Origin: Promethearchaeota archaeon | GTDB taxonomy: Archaea > Asgardarchaeota > Lokiarchaeia > Sigyniarchaeales > SOKP01 | Assembly: GCA_030606485.1 (NCBI GenBank) | Contig: JAUWGH010000011.1 | Location: 30,001 to 62,000, forward strand | Direction: 5' to 3' | Length of the DNA: 32,000 nt | Part shown: piece after piece, positions 3,080 to 32,000 of the stretch | How the letters are laid out: every line of letters begins with the position of its first letter | Numbering within the stretch: the first letter of the stretch is position 1 | The notes under the pieces: generated by a model | The model's input: the letters and a program-made list of their open reading frames with translations, nothing else | What the model was told of the DNA's origin: nothing | Database searches by the model: none | Translations under genes and position numbers: made by a program

Positions 3080-4609
3080 TTATTCCTCATCTTTGACGAT
3101 ATATTTTGTAATATCATCTTCATAACTGTGAAAATGGAACTTCTCTGGACTCAACAAAAAATTTGGATCCACAGTTCTCTTCATATCCTTAAAAAATTGG
3201 ATAAATTCCGGTGTGTAAGCACCAGCCTCAACTATCGACTGCGAAATTGCCTCTCCAAGCCAATAATGAACTCCACCATATTTTACTTGATGCCTTAATT
3301 TCTTATGCCACATATTCATCGCAATCTGGCGTTGTTCCTCAATATTGTCTGCATTAAAACCGCCTACAAAAACACAATTTCCGTTAGGTAATAGAAATAT
3401 ACATGTGGCAAATAAAGATATACTTCCAGGTGGAAATTCAGCCCGATACTTTGCATCAAATTGAGTGCTTAATTTAACTATTTCTGGTATAGATGAAATT
3501 GGAACTTTATGACAAGTTGTGCAGGATATCTTTGGTGGTTGAATAGAAATGTATTGATTAAAATAATTATAGGCAAACTTTAAATTGAACTCCCAATCCT
3601 TTGATAATGGCTGGCTTAAATCAATTTCCTGCCATTCAAATGGTCTGGCATCATCTTTCATAATCTCATCAACTTTTTCTTGATAAACATCCAAGATTCG
3701 CTGATCAAATGCCTCCAACCCAACCATAAAGACAGAACCTCTTATTTTAGGTCTTGTGGGAGGTTTTTGCTGTGCCATACCCTCCATAAATTTAACCACA
3801 GTAAATGGTACAAGAATTAAATCATGTAATCCATCATTAACTTCTTTTCGCAATCTGTACATTATTTCGAATACTTTATTATAATCATTCTTGTTAAGGA
3901 TATAATGTCGCTGAGATTTGAATGGAGCATCCGGAAATATTTTTAAAAATGCTTTAGTCTTAATCCCCATGGTTCCCACATCCCCCATAAAAAGACCCGT
4001 GAAATCCGGTGCAACTCCATACCGGCAAAATGGCTTTGCATATTTACTTGCGGCTGCCCCTGTTCTCAAAATAGTTCCCTGTGGGTTTGGTAATACAACC
4101 TCAACTCCCAAACATATATCAGGAACTAAACCATATTTTGTCGAACCAAACCCCGCTGTGCTATTAGAAAGACCGCCCCCGATGGTCGCTGAGTAACCGC
4201 TTCCAGGTCCCAGAACTCCCGTTGTTAGACCTTTCTTTTGCAATTCTGAAACCAAAATGCCCCAAGTTATTCCACACTCAACCTCACAATAATAATCTAT
4301 TTCATTAATCTCCAAAATCTGATTCATTCTCGTAAGATCCATCAGAATTCCTCCCTCGGTGACTGACCCCCCAACCAAGTCAGCGCCACCGCCCCTCGGA
4401 ACCATGTGAATCTTGTATTTGTTCGCAATCTTGATAATTTCTGATACTTCCTCCGTTGATTGCGGTCTTACAATCATATCTGCCCATCTATCGGGAAAAG
4501 CGGGGTCAACATTTCTCGAATATGCTGCTTTCATGAAATCCTTATCAGTAATATAATCCGAGCCAATAATTTTTTCTATCTCAACATACACTTCCTTAAC
4601 TTTGGACAT
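3080..4609 (-). CDS. FAD-binding oxidoreductase (GlcD / D-lactate dehydrogenase / VAO-type, FAD_binding_4)
   Basis: IVRPQSTEEVSEIIK, VPRGGGADLVGG, MDLTRMNQILEI, ATIGG, GLEV-like CLGVEVVLP, GTMGIKT and DPNFLLSP. Confidence 0.9.
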   Translation of the reverse strand: MSKVKEVYVEIEKIIGSDYITDKDFMKAAYSRNVDPAFPDRWADMIVRPQSTEEVSEIIKIANKYKIHMVPRGGGADLVGGSVTEGGILMDLTRMNQILEINEIDYYCEVECGITWGILVSELQKKGLTTGVLGPGSGYSATIGGGLSNSTAGFGSTKYGLVPDICLGVEVVLPNPQGTILRTGAAASKYAKPFCRYGVAPDFTGLFMGDVGTMGIKTKAFLKIFPDAPFKSQRHYILNKNDYNKVFEIMYRLRKEVNDGLHDLILVPFTVVKFMEGMAQQKPPTRPKIRGSVFMVGLEAFDQRILDVYQEKVDEIMKDDARPFEWQEIDLSQPLSKDWEFNLKFAYNYFNQYISIQPPKISCTTCHKVPISSIPEIVKLSTQFDAKYRAEFPPGSISLFATCIFLLPNGNCVFVGGFNADNIEEQRQIAMNMWHKKLRHQVKYGGVHYWLGEAISQSIVEAGAYTPEFIQFFKDMKRTVDPNFLLSPEKFHFHSYEDDITKYIVKDEE

Positions 4610-4769
4610 TTTTTTACCACATGTTTTCCCTAACTAGCTTTAAATAAAACAACTGCAATTTATATACAATAGTGTGAAATTTAATAAAAAATTTTATCAT
4701 ACTATTAGTATAATTAAAACTAAATTAAATCTTGTAAAAAAAATAAATAATAATAAGAGGGAACAAACA

Positions 4770-5153
4770 ATGGCAACCGAAATTTTAAAAGGGCTTAAAA
4801 TAATATTTCTCCTTCAATTTATCACAATGACATTCTTTGGGATTTTTTTCTTTTTTTTCATTGAAGCATATGTAGTACTTTTTAGTTGGCCATATTTAGA
4901 CCCAATCGCTGGACATTATATTGGTGCATTCTCATTAGGAATCGCAGTTTTAGCCATATTAGCTTATAGAGAAACAGAATGGGATAGAATAGAGCTTTTA
5001 GTTATTTTTCATATCGTCTGGATTCTTTTAGGCTTAATTGCAATGATATGGGGACTTGTCACGGATTTCACTTTTGCTGGTACGTTTAATTCAATTTTAC
5101 TTGTATTCTTTCTCGTAGCTTTTACATATTTCTATTTGCAACAGAGAAAGTAG
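4770..5153 (+). CDS. Small 4-TM membrane protein, unknown function
   Basis: Four hydrophobic segments. ATG at 4770 follows a GAGG SD; the ORF-track start at 4674 adds an implausible K/N-rich leader. Confidence 0.75.
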   Translation: MATEILKGLKIIFLLQFITMTFFGIFFFFFIEAYVVLFSWPYLDPIAGHYIGAFSLGIAVLAILAYRETEWDRIELLVIFHIVWILLGLIAMIWGLVTDFTFAGTFNSILLVFFLVAFTYFYLQQRK

Positions 5154-5203
5154 CTTAATTAAAACGAGCATCTTAAGAAACCCCAACACGAGAATATTAA
5201 AAT

Positions 5204-5488
5204 CTAAAACTTTTTTTTTATTCCAACTACAATTCCTATTAATATTGATCCTAAAACTCCAAATATTGTGGCTCTATTAATATTTAAAGTAAAAAGAAAC
5301 CAAGCTGACAAAAGAACAGAGAAAGTTCCAGCTATTAAAATCGCTTGTAATAGATGAAAAGGATCGAAATCTGGGAAATTGGTACTTACAAAAATATCTG
5401 CAAAATAAGTATTCCAAGCAAGAGAAATAAAAGAAATAAAAACATAAAGTATCCTAATTATACGCGGAGTTTTACTTTTAATTTTAAT
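5204..5488 (-). CDS. Probable 94-aa, 3-TM membrane protein with non-canonical ATT start
   Basis: Not in the ORF track. The frame is open for 95 codons: IKIKSKTPRIIRILYVFISFISLAWNTYF...FHLLQAILIAGTFSVLLSAWFLFTL...ATIFGVLGSILIGIVVGIKKKF*. AGGAAAGGTG lies just upstream and there is no in-frame ATG/GTG. Confidence 0.55.
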   Translation of the reverse strand: MKIKSKTPRIIRILYVFISFISLAWNTYFADIFVSTNFPDFDPFHLLQAILIAGTFSVLLSAWFLFTLNINRATIFGVLGSILIGIVVGIKKKF

Positions 5489-26826: not shown

Positions 26827-27735
26827 TTACCGTTTGATTTTTTTCTCTTTTTCTTTAATTTCAATGTTTTTTTTCTTAATTAAGTCTTTTAAATAATCAA
26901 TCTGACTAGTTTTTCTCATATTTTCTTCCTTTAAATTAGTAATTAATAGTCTTTGTTTTTTCAACTTCTCTTGTAAATCTCTAACAAGATTATGTACAGG
27001 TATTTCCTCCTCTTTAATCTCAATTATATGACCATTTGATTTAGATCCTTTCTTTCTTTCCTGTTCTAATTGTTGCTGAAGCTGAATTTTTTCTTTTCTA
27101 AGTAAACCCATGTTAATCTTTAATTCCCTATATTTTTTTTCTGTTTCTTCTAATTTCAACTGTAATTTTTTAGCATATGCACGTTTTTTTCCGTACTTAT
27201 CAATTAGATCATTTAATTTATTTAATTCTTCTCTATATGAGGATATTGATATTTCACTAATCTCTAAATCCGTTTTGAGGTGTTCAATTTCTCTATTTTT
27301 AAAATCAAATTCCTTTTTTATTTGATTTACCTCAACTCTCAGTTGATCTATGCTTTCCTCAATTTGTTCTTTTAATTCAATTCCTTCTTTTGGTTTTATT
27401 TCTTGTTTTATTTCTATTTTATCAAATTTTTTTGCAAGTTTAATACTTTTACTTCCTTCTATAAACTCAAGAAAATCACGGGGCTCTATCCCTTCGTCTA
27501 CAGGCACAACTGAATACTCCAAACCTACTTGCCCTCTAATATCTTGGCTTTTTTGAGCACCAATAAATTTCTTTCTAACTGATGATTCTGCCCCCTTCCA
27601 TAACCAAATTGTTTTATCAGGGGGATCACTGATGATAATATACACTTCAAAAGTCTTCAGGATATCCTTTATATCTTTATCGATTTGTATTTCTTCTATT
27701 TCTCCAGTTTCTAATACTTTAAATATCCGGATCAT
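26827..27735 (-). CDS. Single gelsolin/villin-like domain plus long coiled coil
   Basis: VYIII...IWLWKGAESSVRKKFIGAQKS..IRG...VDEGIEPRDFL resembles Asgard gelsolin domains (W.G..S, EG.E..F). Residues about 100-302 are heptad-rich. Confidence 0.8.
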   Translation of the reverse strand: MIRIFKVLETGEIEEIQIDKDIKDILKTFEVYIIISDPPDKTIWLWKGAESSVRKKFIGAQKSQDIRGQVGLEYSVVPVDEGIEPRDFLEFIEGSKSIKLAKKFDKIEIKQEIKPKEGIELKEQIEESIDQLRVEVNQIKKEFDFKNREIEHLKTDLEISEISISSYREELNKLNDLIDKYGKKRAYAKKLQLKLEETEKKYRELKINMGLLRKEKIQLQQQLEQERKKGSKSNGHIIEIKEEEIPVHNLVRDLQEKLKKQRLLITNLKEENMRKTSQIDYLKDLIKKKNIEIKEKEKKIKR

Positions 27736-27865
27736 ATTTTATGCCGTTGAGATTATCATAATTTTTTTGAATGTTAATAAGATAAATTTGTTTTTTATCC
27801 ATCAATGTAAAAATGCTAATATAATTTTTAAAATCTTTCCTAATTTTCGTATATCAATAACTTCC

Positions 27866-28387
27866 TTATCTTTTAGATTTCTCATCCAATGCCATTTTTG
27901 CAATCCTAGAGAAAATTTCAGATGCTCCTTCTTTTGAAACAACCGAAGTTTCAATATAGTTCAGTTTAAAATCTTCAATTAATTTCTCAACTTCCTTGTG
28001 AGATACAGTAAAAAAATTGGAATATCTTTTATTTCCCACAAGAAGTATAGGAATACCTACAGCATTCTTCCTAACTAAGTTAATCCAATCAGGCAAATTC
28101 TCGAAAGATCTCCGATCGGCAAAATCGAAAAATAATATCAACCCTTCAGCTCCTTTAACATACTGCGGGAATAAAAATTTGTACTTTTTTTCACTTCTAA
28201 AATTCCACAATTGTAGTTTTACTTTTATATTTGCGATCTCAACATTTTTACTGAAAAAATTAACTCCAATAGTAAGGCTCAGATCCTCCTCAAATAATTT
28301 AGGCTTATTAATATGACGTGATAAAAGCGCTTTCTTAATCCAGCCCTCGCCTAACATTAATATCTTAAATGTTTCATCAGTCTTCAT
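27866..28387 (-). CDS. Rab/Ras-like small GTPase fold with degenerate G1, G3, G4 and G5 motifs
   Basis: FKILMLG, TIGVNF, VKLQLW, YVKGAEGLILFFD, SFENL..W, PILLVGNK and YIETS show the Rab-like scaffold; the catalytic motifs are altered. Confidence 0.88.
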   Translation of the reverse strand: MKTDETFKILMLGEGWIKKALLSRHINKPKLFEEDLSLTIGVNFFSKNVEIANIKVKLQLWNFRSEKKYKFLFPQYVKGAEGLILFFDFADRRSFENLPDWINLVRKNAVGIPILLVGNKRYSNFFTVSHKEVEKLIEDFKLNYIETSVVSKEGASEIFSRIAKMALDEKSKR

Positions 28388-28457
28388 TTAAGATTTTTCC
28401 TCCACTCTAGTTAATTTAAATATCAAGTCTGAAATTAATCTCTTTTTTCTTCAATAT

Positions 28458-28802
28458 TCAGGTATCAATTAAGAAATCTCCTAATCCAGCTCCTAAACGA
28501 GGATATCTGGTTGTTGATAGAACTAATATTCGATTTTTGCCCGCGGCTATTATGAGGATTAAACCATTATCTCCCTCAATCATAATTCTCTTTAGATTTC
28601 CACGAGCAACCTCTAAAACCCCACGTTCTCCTAATGAAAATATCGCAGCGGTCATAGCGGCAATTATTGTATCATCGATCACCTCGGGAAAAACACTTAC
28701 AATAAGGGACCCCTCTATTGAAACAATTGCTCCAGCCTCAACGTCAGGATTGGACTTAACCAATCTTTTTAGATCTCGCTTAAGTGATTTTAAATCAACC
28801 AT
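28458..28802 (-). CDS. Roadblock/LC7 (MglB-like) protein, copy 2
   Basis: Nearly identical to 18419-18826 through RYPRLGAGLG, then a different short tail (DFLIDT). Confidence 0.9.
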   Translation of the reverse strand: MVDLKSLKRDLKRLVKSNPDVEAGAIVSIEGSLIVSVFPEVIDDTIIAAMTAAIFSLGERGVLEVARGNLKRIMIEGDNGLILIIAAGKNRILVLSTTRYPRLGAGLGDFLIDT

Positions 28803-29410: not shown

Positions 29411-29968
29411 ATGATTACGATAGAAAGTTTTCTGGATTTAAAGAATATTAAAATTCTAATAGATGTTTGCAATATATGTTATTGCCAAAAAACTGATGAT
29501 GGGAAACCTATTCTTGCCAACTTAATGTCAGTTTTACATCATTTGATTAAAGAATTAGAAATCCCGAGGCATAATATTATTTGTATTTCGGATCCTGGAG
29601 TTGTTAGGTATATGGATGATTCGAAAAAGTTCCAAAAAATGATAGATTCTGGAGAGGTCATAAAATCGCCGAAAACGGCAGATGAGTTCATTTTAGGGTT
29701 TGCACTTAGTTGCGACTTCTGTCTAATTATATCTAACGATAAATATAGAGACTATATTAAACAATTACCGAGTGAAGAATGGCTTCAAGATAGGAGTGTG
29801 AATTTTATGATAATTAATGGTGTAACGGTTTTAAGTCCTAATATCGAATTTGAGAAATTAAGCGGTAGAGTTGGAAAAACTTTTAGTGAAAAAATTAGTG
29901 AAAATATTGAAGAATTTATTGACATAACTAAATTAGAAAAAATTACGTTAAGTGAAAGAGATGTATAA
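29411..29968 (+). CDS. NYN/PIN-like ribonuclease, Zc3h12a (Regnase)-type
   Basis: ILIDVCNI, ISD, ADEFILGFA and LIISNDKYRDY retain the acidic PIN active-site residues. GGAGG SD. Confidence 0.8.
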   Translation: MITIESFLDLKNIKILIDVCNICYCQKTDDGKPILANLMSVLHHLIKELEIPRHNIICISDPGVVRYMDDSKKFQKMIDSGEVIKSPKTADEFILGFALSCDFCLIISNDKYRDYIKQLPSEEWLQDRSVNFMIINGVTVLSPNIEFEKLSGRVGKTFSEKISENIEEFIDITKLEKITLSERDV

Positions 29969-30058
29969 AAAACGCAATATATTTGGTGGGATATTAAAAA
30001 AAATAAAAGAAAATTAAGAGTAAAATATATTTATAATAAACCTTAATTGGTAAATTTT

Positions 30059-30838
30059 ATGAGTTGGGAGGAAAGAGAGATTTTATTAGTTGCAAAAACC
30101 TATCCTGTAAGAAGTAGATCTCATGGAAATACCGTATGTACTGCAGGGATTTTAGAAGATACAAATGAATGGGTAAGAATTTATCCAATCAGATGGATAA
30201 AATATGCTAAAAATAATTTAAAGAAATTTGTGCGCTTTAAAGCTCAAATTAAGAAAAATACTTCAGAATATCTACAAAGAAAAGATTCCTATAAAATCAG
30301 AGAACCTACAATCAGAATAACTGATGATAGTTTAACTAAAACTCAAAATAAAGGAGTCTGGCAAGAAAGAAAAAAGATATTATTAAAAACTCTCTCCAAT
30401 TCAATTGAAACTCTTAATGAAAAATTTAAGGAGGATAAAACATCATTAGGAATGATAAAACCAATAGCAAATTCAATAGAATTTTTGATTCTTAAACCAG
30501 TTGATGAAATTGAAATTGATGTTGAAAAATCAACTCAATATACCATTTTTGGAGAGAAATTAATAAAAGTTGATAAAATAGAAAATGTATTTAAATATAA
30601 ATTTAAATGTATTAATGTTAAATGTTCCACTCATAAAATGATATGTGAAGATTGGGAATTACTACAAGCTTTTAGAAAATTTAGAAAGATATACGATTCT
30701 GAAGAACTCGAAAAACAATTAAGAAATCAATTTTATGAAAAAATGATTAAATATAGAGATTTATATTTTATTGTAGGTACTCATTGGCAATTTCCTAAAT
30801 TTTTAATAATTGGACTTTTTTATCCCCCAAAAAGATAA
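30059..30838 (+). CDS. KTYP-motif protein, probable dual-OB-fold (DuOB-like) nucleic-acid binder
   Basis: LLVAKTYP...TVCTAGI...EWVRIYPI, SLGMIKP, FKYKFKC....C..H.MICEDWE and YFIVGT...F.IIGLFYPP. ATG at 30059 lies 29 nt after TTTATAA (30030-30036). The fold assignment is recalled or inferred. Confidence 0.65.
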   Translation: MSWEEREILLVAKTYPVRSRSHGNTVCTAGILEDTNEWVRIYPIRWIKYAKNNLKKFVRFKAQIKKNTSEYLQRKDSYKIREPTIRITDDSLTKTQNKGVWQERKKILLKTLSNSIETLNEKFKEDKTSLGMIKPIANSIEFLILKPVDEIEIDVEKSTQYTIFGEKLIKVDKIENVFKYKFKCINVKCSTHKMICEDWELLQAFRKFRKIYDSEELEKQLRNQFYEKMIKYRDLYFIVGTHWQFPKFLIIGLFYPPKR

Positions 30839-30851
30839 GAGATTAAATAAA

Positions 30852-31916
30852 ATGAAAATAAAAATTGAAAAAATAATAGTTGGAAAATATAATGTAAGAG
30901 AAAAATTTGAACAAGAATATTTAGAAGAAATAAAAGAAAGCCTAAAAATTGATGGGCAATGGAATCCTATAATTATAAGACCTATAGGAAATGGGAAATA
31001 TGAATTGATTTCAGGACATTATCGTTTACAAGCGGCCATAGAATTAGGTTGGAAAGAAATCGAGGCTACTGTAAAAGATATATCAGAAATTAATGCAGAT
31101 GTATTGTCTTTAAAAACAAATTTATTAAGATTGAATATGTCTCCAAGAGAACAAGGTAAAGTTATACATAATTTAATAACAAAATATGGGATTAGTCAAA
31201 ATGAATTAGCGGAAAAAATAGGAATGAGTCAGAGCAAAATTAGTCAATTATTAACAATTGTATTGAAATTACATAAATCTGTCGTTGATGCTTTAAATTT
31301 AAAAACCATAAATTATGGAATTGCATCTGTTATTGGAAGTCTTAGTTTAGAACAGCAACCTATTTTTTTAGAAATCATTTTGAATAGTAAAATCTCATCT
31401 CCAGCATTAGCAACAAAAATAAAGAATAAATTTTTAAATAACACCTTATATACGATTGGATATCAAGGACGAAATTCAGCTAATTTTATTGAAATTTTAG
31501 AAAAAAATGATATTAAACTTGTCGTTGATATTAGAAGTTCTGCAAAATCAGAAAAAAAACCAGAATTTAATGAAGAAATCCTGAGTCGAGAATTGGAGCG
31601 AAATGATATGAAATATAAACACTATCCAGAATTAGGTGTTCCATATATACTTCAAGAACCATATAAAGATGGAAAATTTTCATATGAGTGTTTAAAACAA
31701 TGGTACAATTGGCATATCAAAGAAAATGTTGAATTGGAAGAAATAATAAAATTTTTAAAAGATTCGGGACGGTCGGTAATATTATGTATGGAAAGATATG
31801 CAAAACCAACGAAAGAGCAAAAATATGCTTGCCACAGAAATATTCTTGCAGATTTAATTTTAAAATTTAAGGTTTCAGATCCCTTGCTTGAATTTAATAA
31901 AAGGATAGATTTATAA
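30852..31916 (+). CDS. ParB/Spo0J N-domain + HTH + DUF488 fusion
   Basis: ParB: NVR, LKIDGQWNPIIIR, LISGHYRLQAA, TNLLR. HTH: ISQNELAEKIGMSQSKISQLL. DUF488: LYTIGYQG, VVDIR, YPELG, ILCME...CHRNILA. ATG at 30852, 13 nt after the upstream stop, is preferred over 30810. Confidence 0.85.
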   Translation: MKIKIEKIIVGKYNVREKFEQEYLEEIKESLKIDGQWNPIIIRPIGNGKYELISGHYRLQAAIELGWKEIEATVKDISEINADVLSLKTNLLRLNMSPREQGKVIHNLITKYGISQNELAEKIGMSQSKISQLLTIVLKLHKSVVDALNLKTINYGIASVIGSLSLEQQPIFLEIILNSKISSPALATKIKNKFLNNTLYTIGYQGRNSANFIEILEKNDIKLVVDIRSSAKSEKKPEFNEEILSRELERNDMKYKHYPELGVPYILQEPYKDGKFSYECLKQWYNWHIKENVELEEIIKFLKDSGRSVILCMERYAKPTKEQKYACHRNILADLILKFKVSDPLLEFNKRIDL

Positions 31917-32000
31917 AATTATTTTTAATTTTAATTTATTTTAAAATAAAGATTTTCAGCTTTTTATGAAGATGATACTCATTTCTTTTATTTTCTTTAA

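Follow-up and report, generated by a model that had tools for sequence, protein, structure and literature searches.

A ParB–DUF488 fusion gene and its DuOB partner in an Asgard archaeon: an archaeal variant of a catalogued candidate anti-virus cassette

PDC-M19, a PADLOC system in which a DUF488 protein (PDC-M19A) and a DuOB protein (PDC-M19B) are encoded by two adjacent genes, is a predicted phage-defence candidate (Payne et al., bioRxiv 10.1101/2024.01.29.577857). PDC systems are defined by their embedding in BREX, DISARM or type I RM loci (bioRxiv 10.1101/2024.01.29.577857). Neither 'DuOB' nor 'PDC-M19' turned up as a term in the searchable full-text literature. A DUF488 domain also occurs in the archaeal ParB-CTPase–archDUF488 protein GA93 (GCA_016839905.1, JAEOTJ010000457.1-8), which, according to the main text of the article, bound CTP in vitro in a DRaCALA assay after purification, while mutants of the same study in which the Box II arginine was changed to alanine lost nucleotide binding (Kaljevic et al., PNAS 2025, PMC12704722). 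The survey presented there found no consistent parA neighbour for the DUF488 fusion class, and the ParB homologues KorB, VirB and BisD are described as acting in gene regulation (PMC12704722, main text).

The gene pair analysed here comes from an Asgard archaeon from marine sediment and lies in a stretch of 32 000 nucleotides (the window). A preliminary description of this DNA took the pair for a candidate new DNA-scanning defence or repair system and knew of no characterisation of the fusion. The pair, however, matches PDC-M19, the partner family is Pfam DuOB (PF22557) and GA93 is a purified, CTP-binding ortholog of the fusion (PMC12704722, main text).

Gene layout and the ParB–HTH module

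The features of the locus are listed in Table 1. The start of gene 1 was placed at the ATG that aligns with the 'MSWEE' start of its homologues. The two-gene unit and its short gap were confirmed as first described, whereas the TATA box ascribed to it fared less well: the octamer TTTATAAT is present, but the match carries no statistical weight because the surrounding DNA is AT-rich (24% G+C). It is a possible promoter of a leaderless gene 1 transcript. The AT/T-rich stretch that follows gene 2 is a possible terminator and contains a perfect AT-only palindrome of 16 nt (31935–31950), which was found at the window locus only and is not kept at the other loci. A local repeat search around the locus gave nothing notable. 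The upstream gene for an NYN/Zc3h12a-like RNase (29411–29968) and a zinc-ribbon gene were rejected as further components, as neither is conserved at any other locus.

Table 1. Features of the gene pair (window positions; residues of gene 2 are numbered on the 354-residue protein).
Feature	Position	Strand	Remarks
TATA-like box TTTATAAT	30030–30037	+	About 22 nt 5' of the gene 1 ATG; sequence reading
Gene 1, DuOB-family tandem-OB protein, 259 aa	30059–30838	+	KTYP at residues 13–16
Gene 1 stop TAA	30836–30838	+	
Intergenic spacer, 13 nt	30839–30851	+	Read from the sequence
Gene 2, ParB_N + HTH_ParB + DUF488 fusion, 354 aa	30852–31916	+	
ParB N-terminal CTP-binding fold, gene 2 residues 1–95	30852–31136	+	Pfam ParB_N; Noc/Spo0J alignment
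Box I loop, G35-Q-W-N-P39			Gene 2
Box II, G55-H-Y-R58			Gene 2
Box III, K88-T-N-L-L-R93			Gene 2; includes N90-L-L-R93
ParB-type helix-turn-helix DNA-binding domain, gene 2 residues 98–195	31143–31436	+	HTH_ParB 4e-11
DUF488 domain, gene 2 residues 196–354 and stop	31437–31916	+	Pfam DUF488 1e-15; predicted cysteine-phosphatase-like fold
D226-I-R228			Gene 2 DUF488 motif
C312-M-E314	31785–31793	+	Gene 2 DUF488 motif
C327-H328-R329	31830–31838	+	Gene 2 DUF488 motif
AT/T-rich stretch 3' of the gene 2 stop	31917–31960	+	

The ParB CTP-binding domain (with its GHYR and NxxR motifs) and the helix-turn-helix (HTH) that had been recognised in gene 2 were borne out. The ParB_N match (3e-17, residues 16–105 of the longer open reading frame) and the HTH_ParB match both exceed the Pfam cut-offs, and the protein also matches TIGR00180 (7.7e-35) and the Noc profile (E value of 2e-35). 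Noc and Spo0J are the nearest solved sequence relatives of residues 1–190, and residues 19–189 align with the Spo0J structure with a Z score of 14.6 and an r.m.s.d. of 3.0 for 167 aligned residues. In the Noc/Spo0J alignment, Arg58 of Box II and Asn90 and Arg93 of Box III are retained; the canonical ParB CTP-hydrolysis residues (Box I Gln, Box II Glu and Box III Glu) are replaced by Asn38, His56 and Thr89, respectively. The protein starts with MKIKI, which forms the first strand of the fold, and lacks the N-terminal ParA-binding peptide LG(R/K)GL; an N-terminal extension is absent across the 38 fusion-family members, except for a few with unrelated leaders. The C-terminal ParB dimerisation domain is missing and, as originally stated, its place (residues 196–354) is taken by DUF488. 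Owing to this replacement, closure of a clamp would require dimerisation supplied by DUF488 or DuOB. Closure or sliding of the ParB–HTH module, for which the preliminary description had proposed a sliding clamp, is something that we infer, with the three hydrolysis residues replaced.

The DUF488 domain and the DuOB partner

The match of gene 2 to DUF488 (PF04343) scores 58.7 bits, compared with a curated cut-off of 22.2. Five residues (Asp226, Arg228, Glu314, His328 and Arg329) are invariant among the 38 fusion-family members, and the domain has a conserved C-terminal R-x-D-L motif. No solved structure relates to it by sequence. In structure comparisons, residues 196–354 match PTP and dual-specificity phosphatases with Z scores of 6–7.8 and the N-domains of CobF and CbiL with Z scores of 7.5–8.5, which are middling values of a fold likeness that proves no function. 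These matches are consistent with one another and point to a rhodanese/cysteine-phosphatase-like fold of the modelled domain, in which the central strand ends with Cys312 and the next helix begins with Arg329. The cysteine-dependent enzyme of the earlier proposal is likewise something that we infer, and neither of its two cysteines is strictly invariant: Cys312 and Cys327 are each kept in at least 90% of the 38 members, with Cys312 replaced by Gly in two and Cys327 by Ser in one. Burroughs and Aravind are said to have defined, in 2023, a RapZ-C–DUF488–DUF4326 clade of the rhodanese/cysteine-phosphatase superfamily and reportedly predicted DNA-end processing in conflict systems; the similarity of the domain to phosphatases and to tetrapyrrole-methylase N-domains fits this superfamily. 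To our knowledge, no activity has been established for either DUF488 or DuOB.

The protein encoded by gene 1 does not itself match Pfam DuOB, even at an E value of 1, and 11 of its 41 clear homologues do (best 1.1e-06); its assignment to the family thus rests on these homologues and on the fold. Searches with gene 1 found 573 homologues, DuOB as a whole has 3069 representatives at 50% identity, and phrog_25907, which holds DuOB homologues, matches gene 1 with 6.6e-42. AF2 predicts a tandem-OB fold with confidence (pLDDT of 91), and the model matches RPA, HIN-200, PriB and SSB with Foldseek probabilities of 0.96–1.0 and Z scores of 6.4–7.4. The HIN-200 and RPA matches cover residues 3–258, and the N-terminal OB domain resembles those of PriB, RPA, SSB and RecO. 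No solved structure relates to gene 1 by sequence. The KTYP/OB-fold partner named in the preliminary description was correctly recognised. In its KTYP motif (K13-T-Y15-P16), Lys13, Tyr15 and Pro16 are invariant in the close DuOB family and Pro16 also in the wide family. The invariant set of the gene 1 family (Pro16, Cys27, Arg40, Pro43, Arg74 and Gly240) is its own, which suggests a specific ligand-binding or metal-binding site, and Cys27, Cys184, Cys189 and His192 probably form a CCHC zinc site.

Distribution, neighbourhood and proposed role

The ParB_N–HTH_ParB–DUF488 architecture is present in at least 120 clusters, nearly all of them 354 residues long, and the source genome itself carries a second copy with 80% identity; the fusion is thus not a one-off. 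The co-occurrence of fusion and KTYP gene also held: a DuOB gene adjoins the 354-residue fusion on the same strand, in either gene order, at 16 of the 17 loci examined. A DUF488 gene lies beside DuOB in about 24 of the 27 Asgard genomes that have DuOB, and one natural single-chain DUF488 and DuOB protein (P0389) was found. Stand-alone DUF488 enzymes without ParB retain the DuOB partner, and DuOB-linked DUF488 enzymes are also found fused to further modules that bind DNA, either ParB_N with a KorB-like HTH (466–522 residues) or a MazE/AbrB domain, in line with DNA targeting.

A survey of 400 genomes of the phylum found the full-length fusion in only 13, together with one split and one decayed copy; a 100%-complete genome of the same genus lacks the fusion. 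The copies from Bathyarchaeia show 53% identity to the window fusion, compared with 43% for copies from the same genus. Same-genus genomes lack, at high identity, the segment that lies between conserved flanks, and the summed metagenome contig depth of this segment is 5–40 times below that of the flanks. Joints in the contig layouts, with sides of only 20–26 letters, were disregarded as proof of precise excision. Integrases, transposases or TnpB adjoin some of the fusion or DuOB loci, and many loci have no mobility gene within 8 kb. The best reading of these data is an accessory, horizontally mobile and patchily distributed cassette.

Gordonia phage Nymphadora and its relatives carry DuOB and DUF488 genes flanked by the immunity repressor on one side and the integrase on the other, and the second copy in the source genome is near an LmuB/SMC-like ATPase. 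Several archaeal loci have housekeeping neighbours (an upstream ribosomal protein operon and genes for Rad51-family, ERCC4/XPF, tRNA-synthetase and CCA-enzyme proteins), with no recognised defence genes nearby. Macro or DarT-type families are present in none of the neighbourhoods examined, contrary to a suggested link to DarTG. It had been remarked that no parA is visible on the available side; within the window this is correct, but just outside, at window-equivalent positions 33230–34147, the minus strand carries a ParA gene, 1.3 kb downstream of and convergent with the fusion gene. This ParA, the best Soj-type match in the genome (6.8e-43), belongs to another operon, in which it is joined by a 201-residue protein and a NucS-like nuclease. 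Four other genomes keep this trio together, and ParB, DUF488 and DuOB are all absent from the roughly 3.5 kb surveyed there. The 22 other fusion or DuOB loci, the second copy among them, show no ParA homologue. A search for a parS-like palindrome common to 16 loci returned none beyond AT-rich noise; a non-palindromic or distant loading site would escape such a search.

On balance, we favour a mobile conflict-type cassette whose biological role and chemistry are putative: the ParB–HTH module would, under the control of CTP, bring an enzyme of cysteine-phosphatase fold to DNA, and single-stranded DNA or DNA ends would be held by DuOB. The cassette would be a self-contained DuOB–DUF488 pair of the PDC-M19 kind, with DUF488 fused behind a Noc/Spo0J-like ParB domain and HTH. 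In the proposed mechanism, the ParB–HTH module would bind DNA and be switched by CTP; DUF488 might remove or transfer a phosphate-linked group, either on a sugar-phosphate, on a nucleotide that is damaged or modified, or at a DNA end, and the tandem-OB DuOB would hold the single-stranded DNA or DNA end as the substrate. The pair most likely acts in conflicts with mobile DNA such as viruses, in line with the restriction-type loci of PDC systems, the position of the genes in the Gordonia phages and the ATPase near the second copy. This reading has to be set against the candidate status of PDC-M19, the middling fold matches of DUF488, the incomplete conservation of Cys312 and Cys327, the housekeeping rather than defence genes at several archaeal loci, the replaced hydrolysis residues together with the missing dimerisation domain, and a loading site that the palindrome search of 16 loci did not find. 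With considerable doubt on our part, the fusion may even be a new type of ParB machine, a CTP-switched clamp that dimerises through DUF488 or DuOB, carries its own enzyme along DNA and, with DuOB, processes invading DNA ends or modified nucleotides. If so, this would be an immune mechanism of Asgard archaea and Bathyarchaeia whose chemistry has no known precedent among defence systems and, once shown, the first ParB-type CTP switch that delivers an enzyme; an ordinary outcome would add one more catalogued candidate cassette. DUF488 and DuOB are in any case widespread and recurrent in candidate defence cassettes, and the ParB fusion offers a concrete handle on them, as it points to an enzyme that acts on or beside DNA and is CTP-gated.

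Four other explanations were weighed against a conflict-type cassette. The Rad51-family and ERCC4/XPF genes and the site after a ribosomal operon at several loci would suit a housekeeping module for DNA repair or end processing that serves the host genome, in which ParB–HTH directs a DUF488 phosphoesterase to DNA damage such as blocked 3' or 5' ends, with the exposed single strand under the cover of DuOB; the PriB-, RPA-, SSB- and RecO-like N-terminal OB domain and the phosphatase-like fold of DUF488 agree with this. We nevertheless regard it as unlikely, given the patchy spread and the absence from a complete genome of the same genus, the divergent duplicates within one genome, the cross-phylum pattern of similarity, the location of the pair in a prophage immunity module, the PADLOC embedding in restriction-type loci and a segment that varies between genomes. 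Service to mobile elements, as an anti-defence, addiction (toxin–antitoxin-like) or maintenance pair of integrated elements or temperate phages, would account for the mobility genes beside some loci, the occurrence in temperate Gordonia phages, the DuOB homologues in phrog_25907 and the patchy distribution, but is improbable: many loci lack a mobility gene within 8 kb, the phage genes are in the lysogeny module, which is the usual place of host-protecting genes, and a small labile antitoxin is not in evidence. Even less probable is a protein akin to KorB, VirB or Noc, which would depend on CTP to regulate transcription or organise the nucleoid and in which DUF488 would sense a ligand instead of acting on DNA as an enzyme. 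Noc and Spo0J as the nearest solved relatives, the regulatory functions of KorB, VirB and BisD (PMC12704722, main text) and the lack of a ParA-binding motif are in line with such a protein, which would leave unexplained the near-obligate DuOB partner, the same partner of stand-alone DUF488 enzymes without ParB and the invariant catalytic-type residues of DUF488. Ordinary ParABS partitioning, with the fusion as the ParB of the convergent Soj-type ParA, is largely refuted, and, as already supposed in the preliminary description, a role in chromosome or plasmid partitioning is very unlikely because that ParA sits in a separate conserved operon and is absent from the 22 other loci, to which can be added the missing LG(R/K)GL peptide and dimerisation domain, the lack of a parS-like palindrome shared by the 16 loci searched and the published survey of parA neighbours (PMC12704722, main text).

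Comparison with known systems

With respect to canonical ParB, Spo0J and Noc clamps, gene 2 shares the N-terminal CTP-binding fold and the HTH and differs in its boxes, with GHYR for GERR, KTNLLR for ENLQR and Asn for the Box I Gln. Unlike these proteins, it has no ParA-binding peptide, C-terminal dimerisation domain or conserved parA, and the palindrome search of 16 loci brought up no shared parS. The loop from Cys to Arg in its DUF488 domain has 16 residues, in contrast to the CX5R of classical phosphatases, and gene 1 resembles the tandem OB binders RPA, PriB, SSB and HIN-200 in fold but has no detectable sequence similarity to them.

GA93 is another member of the fusion family, an archaeal 'DUF488-HTH' fusion with the architecture of gene 2, and its Box I helix (21–34), Box I loop (35–39) and Box II (55–61) are at the same positions as in gene 2 (PMC12704722, main text). 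As far as we found, the main text of that article refers to neither an OB-fold protein nor a phosphatase, and we came upon no data there on DNA, hydrolysis or enzyme activity for GA93 (PMC12704722). The near-obligate DuOB partner, which we did not find discussed there, is now linked to this published CTP-binding protein.

Among the PADLOC systems, PDC-M45 (DuOB and two DUF488 genes) contains the same two protein families, and the DUF488 domain of gene 2 matches M45B (5e-15) and M45C (3e-08), but the window pair has a single DUF488 gene and the ParB fusion is absent from PDC-M45. PDC-M19, which was built from cassettes of RefSeq genomes whereas the window pair is archaeal, likewise has two adjacent genes. 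PDC-M19B matches the whole of gene 1 (1.8e-46), and PDC-M19A matches only the DUF488 domain of gene 2 (3e-23, profile positions 140–285 of 294); the first ∼140 positions of its profile are unmatched, and gene 2 has the ParB CTP-binding domain and HTH there. Because of this match to PDC-M19 and the CTP-binding archaeal ortholog GA93, we conclude that the gene pair is an archaeal variant of a catalogued kind of candidate anti-virus cassette and not a new kind of system.

Domain architecture of the gene pair

The two genes have the same direction with a 13-nt spacer between them, and both genes, the gap and every motif named in the preliminary description are present in the sequence. A TATA-like octamer ∼22 nt 5′ of gene 1 and a T-rich stretch 3′ of gene 2 carry no weight because the DNA is 24% G+C. 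Judging by the names of its best homologues, the host belongs to the Lokiarchaeota/Promethearchaeota type of Asgard archaea; it derives from cold-seep and marine sediment. Its genome comprises 3.75 Mb in 13 contigs, and the window corresponds to C13:30001-62000; the same gene arrangement occurs on contigs of independent studies with ∼99% identity.

In gene 2, ParB_N, HTH_ParB and DUF488 each score above the Pfam thresholds and TIGR00180 is also matched. The nearest relatives of residues 1-190 are Noc (profile E 2e-35) and Spo0J (structural Z 14.6), and alignment with both shows that the arginine of Box II (R58) and N90/R93 of Box III are retained. In canonical ParB, CTP hydrolysis requires three residues: the Gln of Box I and the Glu residues of GERR and ENLQR. 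Gene 2 has N38, H56 and T89 at these positions, the H56 and T89 replacements being general across its family. Unlike canonical ParB, gene 2 also lacks the N-terminal ParA-binding peptide and the C-terminal dimerization domain; its last HTH helix continues directly into the first DUF488 strand, so that DUF488 stands in place of the usual dimerization domain, as originally described.

The DUF488 part (residues 196-354) matches cysteine phosphatases, including the laforin DSP (Z 7.8), Sulfolobus PTP (Z 7.6), KAP, PRL, Siw14 and baculovirus RNA 5′-phosphatase, as well as the N-domains of the CobF/CbiL methylases (Z 7.5-8.5). Burroughs and Aravind are said to have united these phosphatase and methylase N-domain folds, in 2023, in a rhodanese-phosphatase superfamily. 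C312 ends a strand (308-312) and R329 starts a helix (328-338), which reproduces the Cys...Arg loop geometry of the phosphatases but with 16 intervening residues rather than five. D226, R228, E314, H328 and R329 are invariant in the family, and both DUF488 cysteines are at least 90% conserved, not strictly invariant.

The gene 1 protein of the window has no Pfam or NCBIfam match itself; it matches PADLOC PDC-M19B (1.8e-46) and phrog_25907, and the Pfam DuOB family ('Dual OB-containing domain') is reached by 11 of 41 homologues. The family is large: a word-indexed search gave 573 matches, and an exhaustive one yielded 3069 representatives (50% identity). The confident AF2 model (pLDDT 91) resembles the tandem-OB HIN-200 and RPA proteins over its whole length and the OB folds of PriB, RPA, SSB and RecO over its first 95-110 residues. 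Across the wide family P16, C27, R40, P43, R74 and G240 are invariant and C184, H192, W199, D72, E76 and S77 are at least 90% conserved; C27, C184, C189 and H192 may form a zinc site joining both OB folds.

Distribution and pairing

The three-domain fusion is not a one-off: at least 120 clusters (90% identity), some from Bathyarchaeia, share its domains, nearly all of exactly 354 aa and with 46-80% identity. The host genome carries the whole pair twice; in the copy on contig C10 the fusion is 80% identical to that of the window. Among 400 genomes of the phylum, 13 contain the full-length fusion, one of them in split form, and one further genome retains only a decayed remnant; the fusion is absent from a same-genus genome that is 100% complete. 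This patchy presence points to lateral movement of the cassette, as does the fact that same-genus copies show 43% identity to the window copy and reversed gene order, whereas Bathyarchaeia copies reach 53%.

Co-occurrence with the OB-fold partner was borne out by a local profile scan of 23 loci, 17 of them with the 354-aa fusion: a same-strand DuOB gene adjoins the fusion at 16 of the 17, the split copy being the sole exception. DuOB lies upstream or downstream, sometimes as two or three tandem paralogues. More widely, of the 27 Asgard genomes that encode DuOB, ∼24 have a DUF488 gene next to it. Other forms of this partner are a DUF488 that stands alone behind an unassigned N-extension and is often convergent with DuOB, a fusion of MazE/AbrB to DUF488, and a second architecture of ParB_N, KorB-like HTH and DUF488 (466-522 aa). 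P0389, a 595-aa ENA metagenome protein, carries an unknown N-domain, DUF488 (175-303) and DuOB (324-591) in one chain and is a natural fusion of both partners, although a lost stop codon is possible for this single sequence. In a Bathyarchaeia-type sub-lineage, the ParB-DUF488 gene is immediately preceded, and often overlapped, by the gene for a conserved winged-helix-like protein of 61-71 aa, which suggests a third component of the cassette there; this protein is absent from the window and the close Loki-type loci.

Coordinates of the features (L, fetched loci; G, genomes; C, contigs; G000, host genome; L006 spans the window end; L012 is G000:C10:94000-113000)
Feature	Location	Strand	Remarks
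Gene 1 (DuOB)	window 30059-30838	+	259 aa; start set by homologues' 'MSWEE...' start
Gene 2 (ParB-HTH-DUF488)	window 30852-31916	+	354 aa; 'MKIKI...' start the same in all homologues
Eukaryotic-signature cluster, Asgard type	window 26827-28802	-	Roadblock/LC7, Ras-like GTPase, coiled-coil
Roadblock/LC7	window 28458-28802	-	
Ras-like small GTPase	window 27866-28387	-	
Soj-type ParA	L006 5231-6148	-	305 aa, KGGVGKTT; just past window end
ParA operon	L006 4122-6148 = G000:C13:62122-64148 (window-equivalent 32122-34148)	-	three genes
C10 pair	L012 10846-12698		
LmuB/SMC-like ATPase	L012 242-2131		within 10 kb of C10 pair
341-aa protein	L012 7000-8025		within 10 kb of C10 pair; ParB_N sole Pfam match
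DUF3800 protein	L012 9033-9839		within 10 kb of C10 pair
1293-aa protein			within 10 kb of C10 pair; no family match
Split fusion	G165:C110:1506-2580 (L024)		two overlapping frames; no DuOB within 10 kb
Decayed DUF488 fragment	G179:C11:3819-4211		two in-frame stops
Winged-helix-like protein	L009 6789-7004; L010 6792-7004; L038 7789-8004; L039 7760-7954; L040 7815-8000		
Winged-helix-like protein	L023 7189-7419		here upstream of DuOB
Nymphadora pair	L031 (NC_031061.1) 3983-5280		between immunity repressor gp44 and integrase gp39

Genomic context and biological role

Evidence on whether the pair serves in conflict or in housekeeping repair is mixed. A conflict role is favored by the patchiness, duplication, decay and cross-phylum similarity of the cassette. 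The segment L006 958-6315 has no high-identity counterpart in same-genus genomes, in which its flanks are 91-98% identical, and its summed contig depth in metagenomes is 5-40 times below that of the flanks; the Roadblock region, 91-93% identical in same-genus genomes, marks the left edge of this variable segment. An integrase, methylase and TnpB, or a transposase, adjoin some loci, and an LmuB/SMC-like ATPase is encoded close to the C10 copy. In Gordonia phage Nymphadora and relatives, the DuOB homologue gp43 (annotated hypothetical) directly follows the immunity repressor, with the convergent gp42 (annotated 'HipA toxin') being a DUF488 protein (1.2e-29); this is the usual site of prophage host-protection genes, and six further records of related phages share the arrangement. 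Housekeeping repair is favored by other loci, which follow a ribosomal operon or lie beside Rad51-family, ERCC4 or tRNA-enzyme genes, with no recognized defence gene near them.

Directly upstream of the pair, a 185-aa protein (window 29411-29968, + strand) matches Zc3h12a-like NYN RNases (6.9e-06; 26.3 bits, Pfam cut-off 23); this gene is conserved at no other DuOB or DUF488 locus examined. The coiled-coil protein of the minus-strand cluster (window 26827-28802) has 302 aa.

The pair is very unlikely to be a partitioning locus, since the nearby ParA, the best Soj-type match of the genome, belongs to a conserved operon of its own, no ParA homologue occurs at the 22 other fusion or DuOB loci (the C10 copy included) and a comparison of 16 loci gave no shared parS-like palindrome beyond AT-rich noise. 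The operon begins with this ParA and continues with an uncharacterized protein of 201 aa and a NucS_C/PD-(D/E)XK-like nuclease of 154 aa that carries a zinc ribbon. Four further genomes of the family share the trio (G181, G268, G193 and partly G164); ParA is 75-80% identical in three of these, and no ParB, DUF488 or DuOB lies in the ∼3.5 kb examined at any of the four. The trio may be an independent module in which ParA guides the nuclease. In a published survey, the only class of fusion that regularly has parA beside it is another one (PMC12704722).

Proposed mechanism and relation to known systems

The ParB-HTH module would bring the DUF488 enzyme to DNA in a CTP-controlled manner, probably hydrolyzing CTP slowly or not at all, and clamp closure would need dimerization supplied by DUF488 or DuOB. 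DUF488 might then process a phosphate-linked group, carried either by a DNA end or by a modified nucleotide, with single-stranded DNA presented by DuOB.

The archaeal 'DUF488-HTH' ParB fusion has been listed before; one ortholog (GA93, from GCA_016839905.1), with motif positions identical to those of gene 2, was purified and binds CTP, and in the assays of that study substitution of the Box II arginine by alanine abolished nucleotide binding (Kaljevic et al., PNAS 2025; PMC12704722). In the main text of that paper we saw neither an OB-fold partner nor a phosphatase mentioned. PADLOC lists the DUF488 and DuOB pair as PDC-M19 and a three-gene set with a second DUF488 gene as PDC-M45; both belong to its 145 candidates predicted from their embedding in BREX, DISARM or type I RM loci (Payne et al., bioRxiv 10.1101/2024.01.29.577857). 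The finding at 30030-31916 is real and was well described, but the proposal of a new DNA-scanning defence or repair system did not hold: the pair is not new in kind and represents an archaeal form, fused to ParB, of the catalogued candidate DuOB-DUF488 cassette. Its value lies in opening two widespread, functionally uncharacterized families to experiment.
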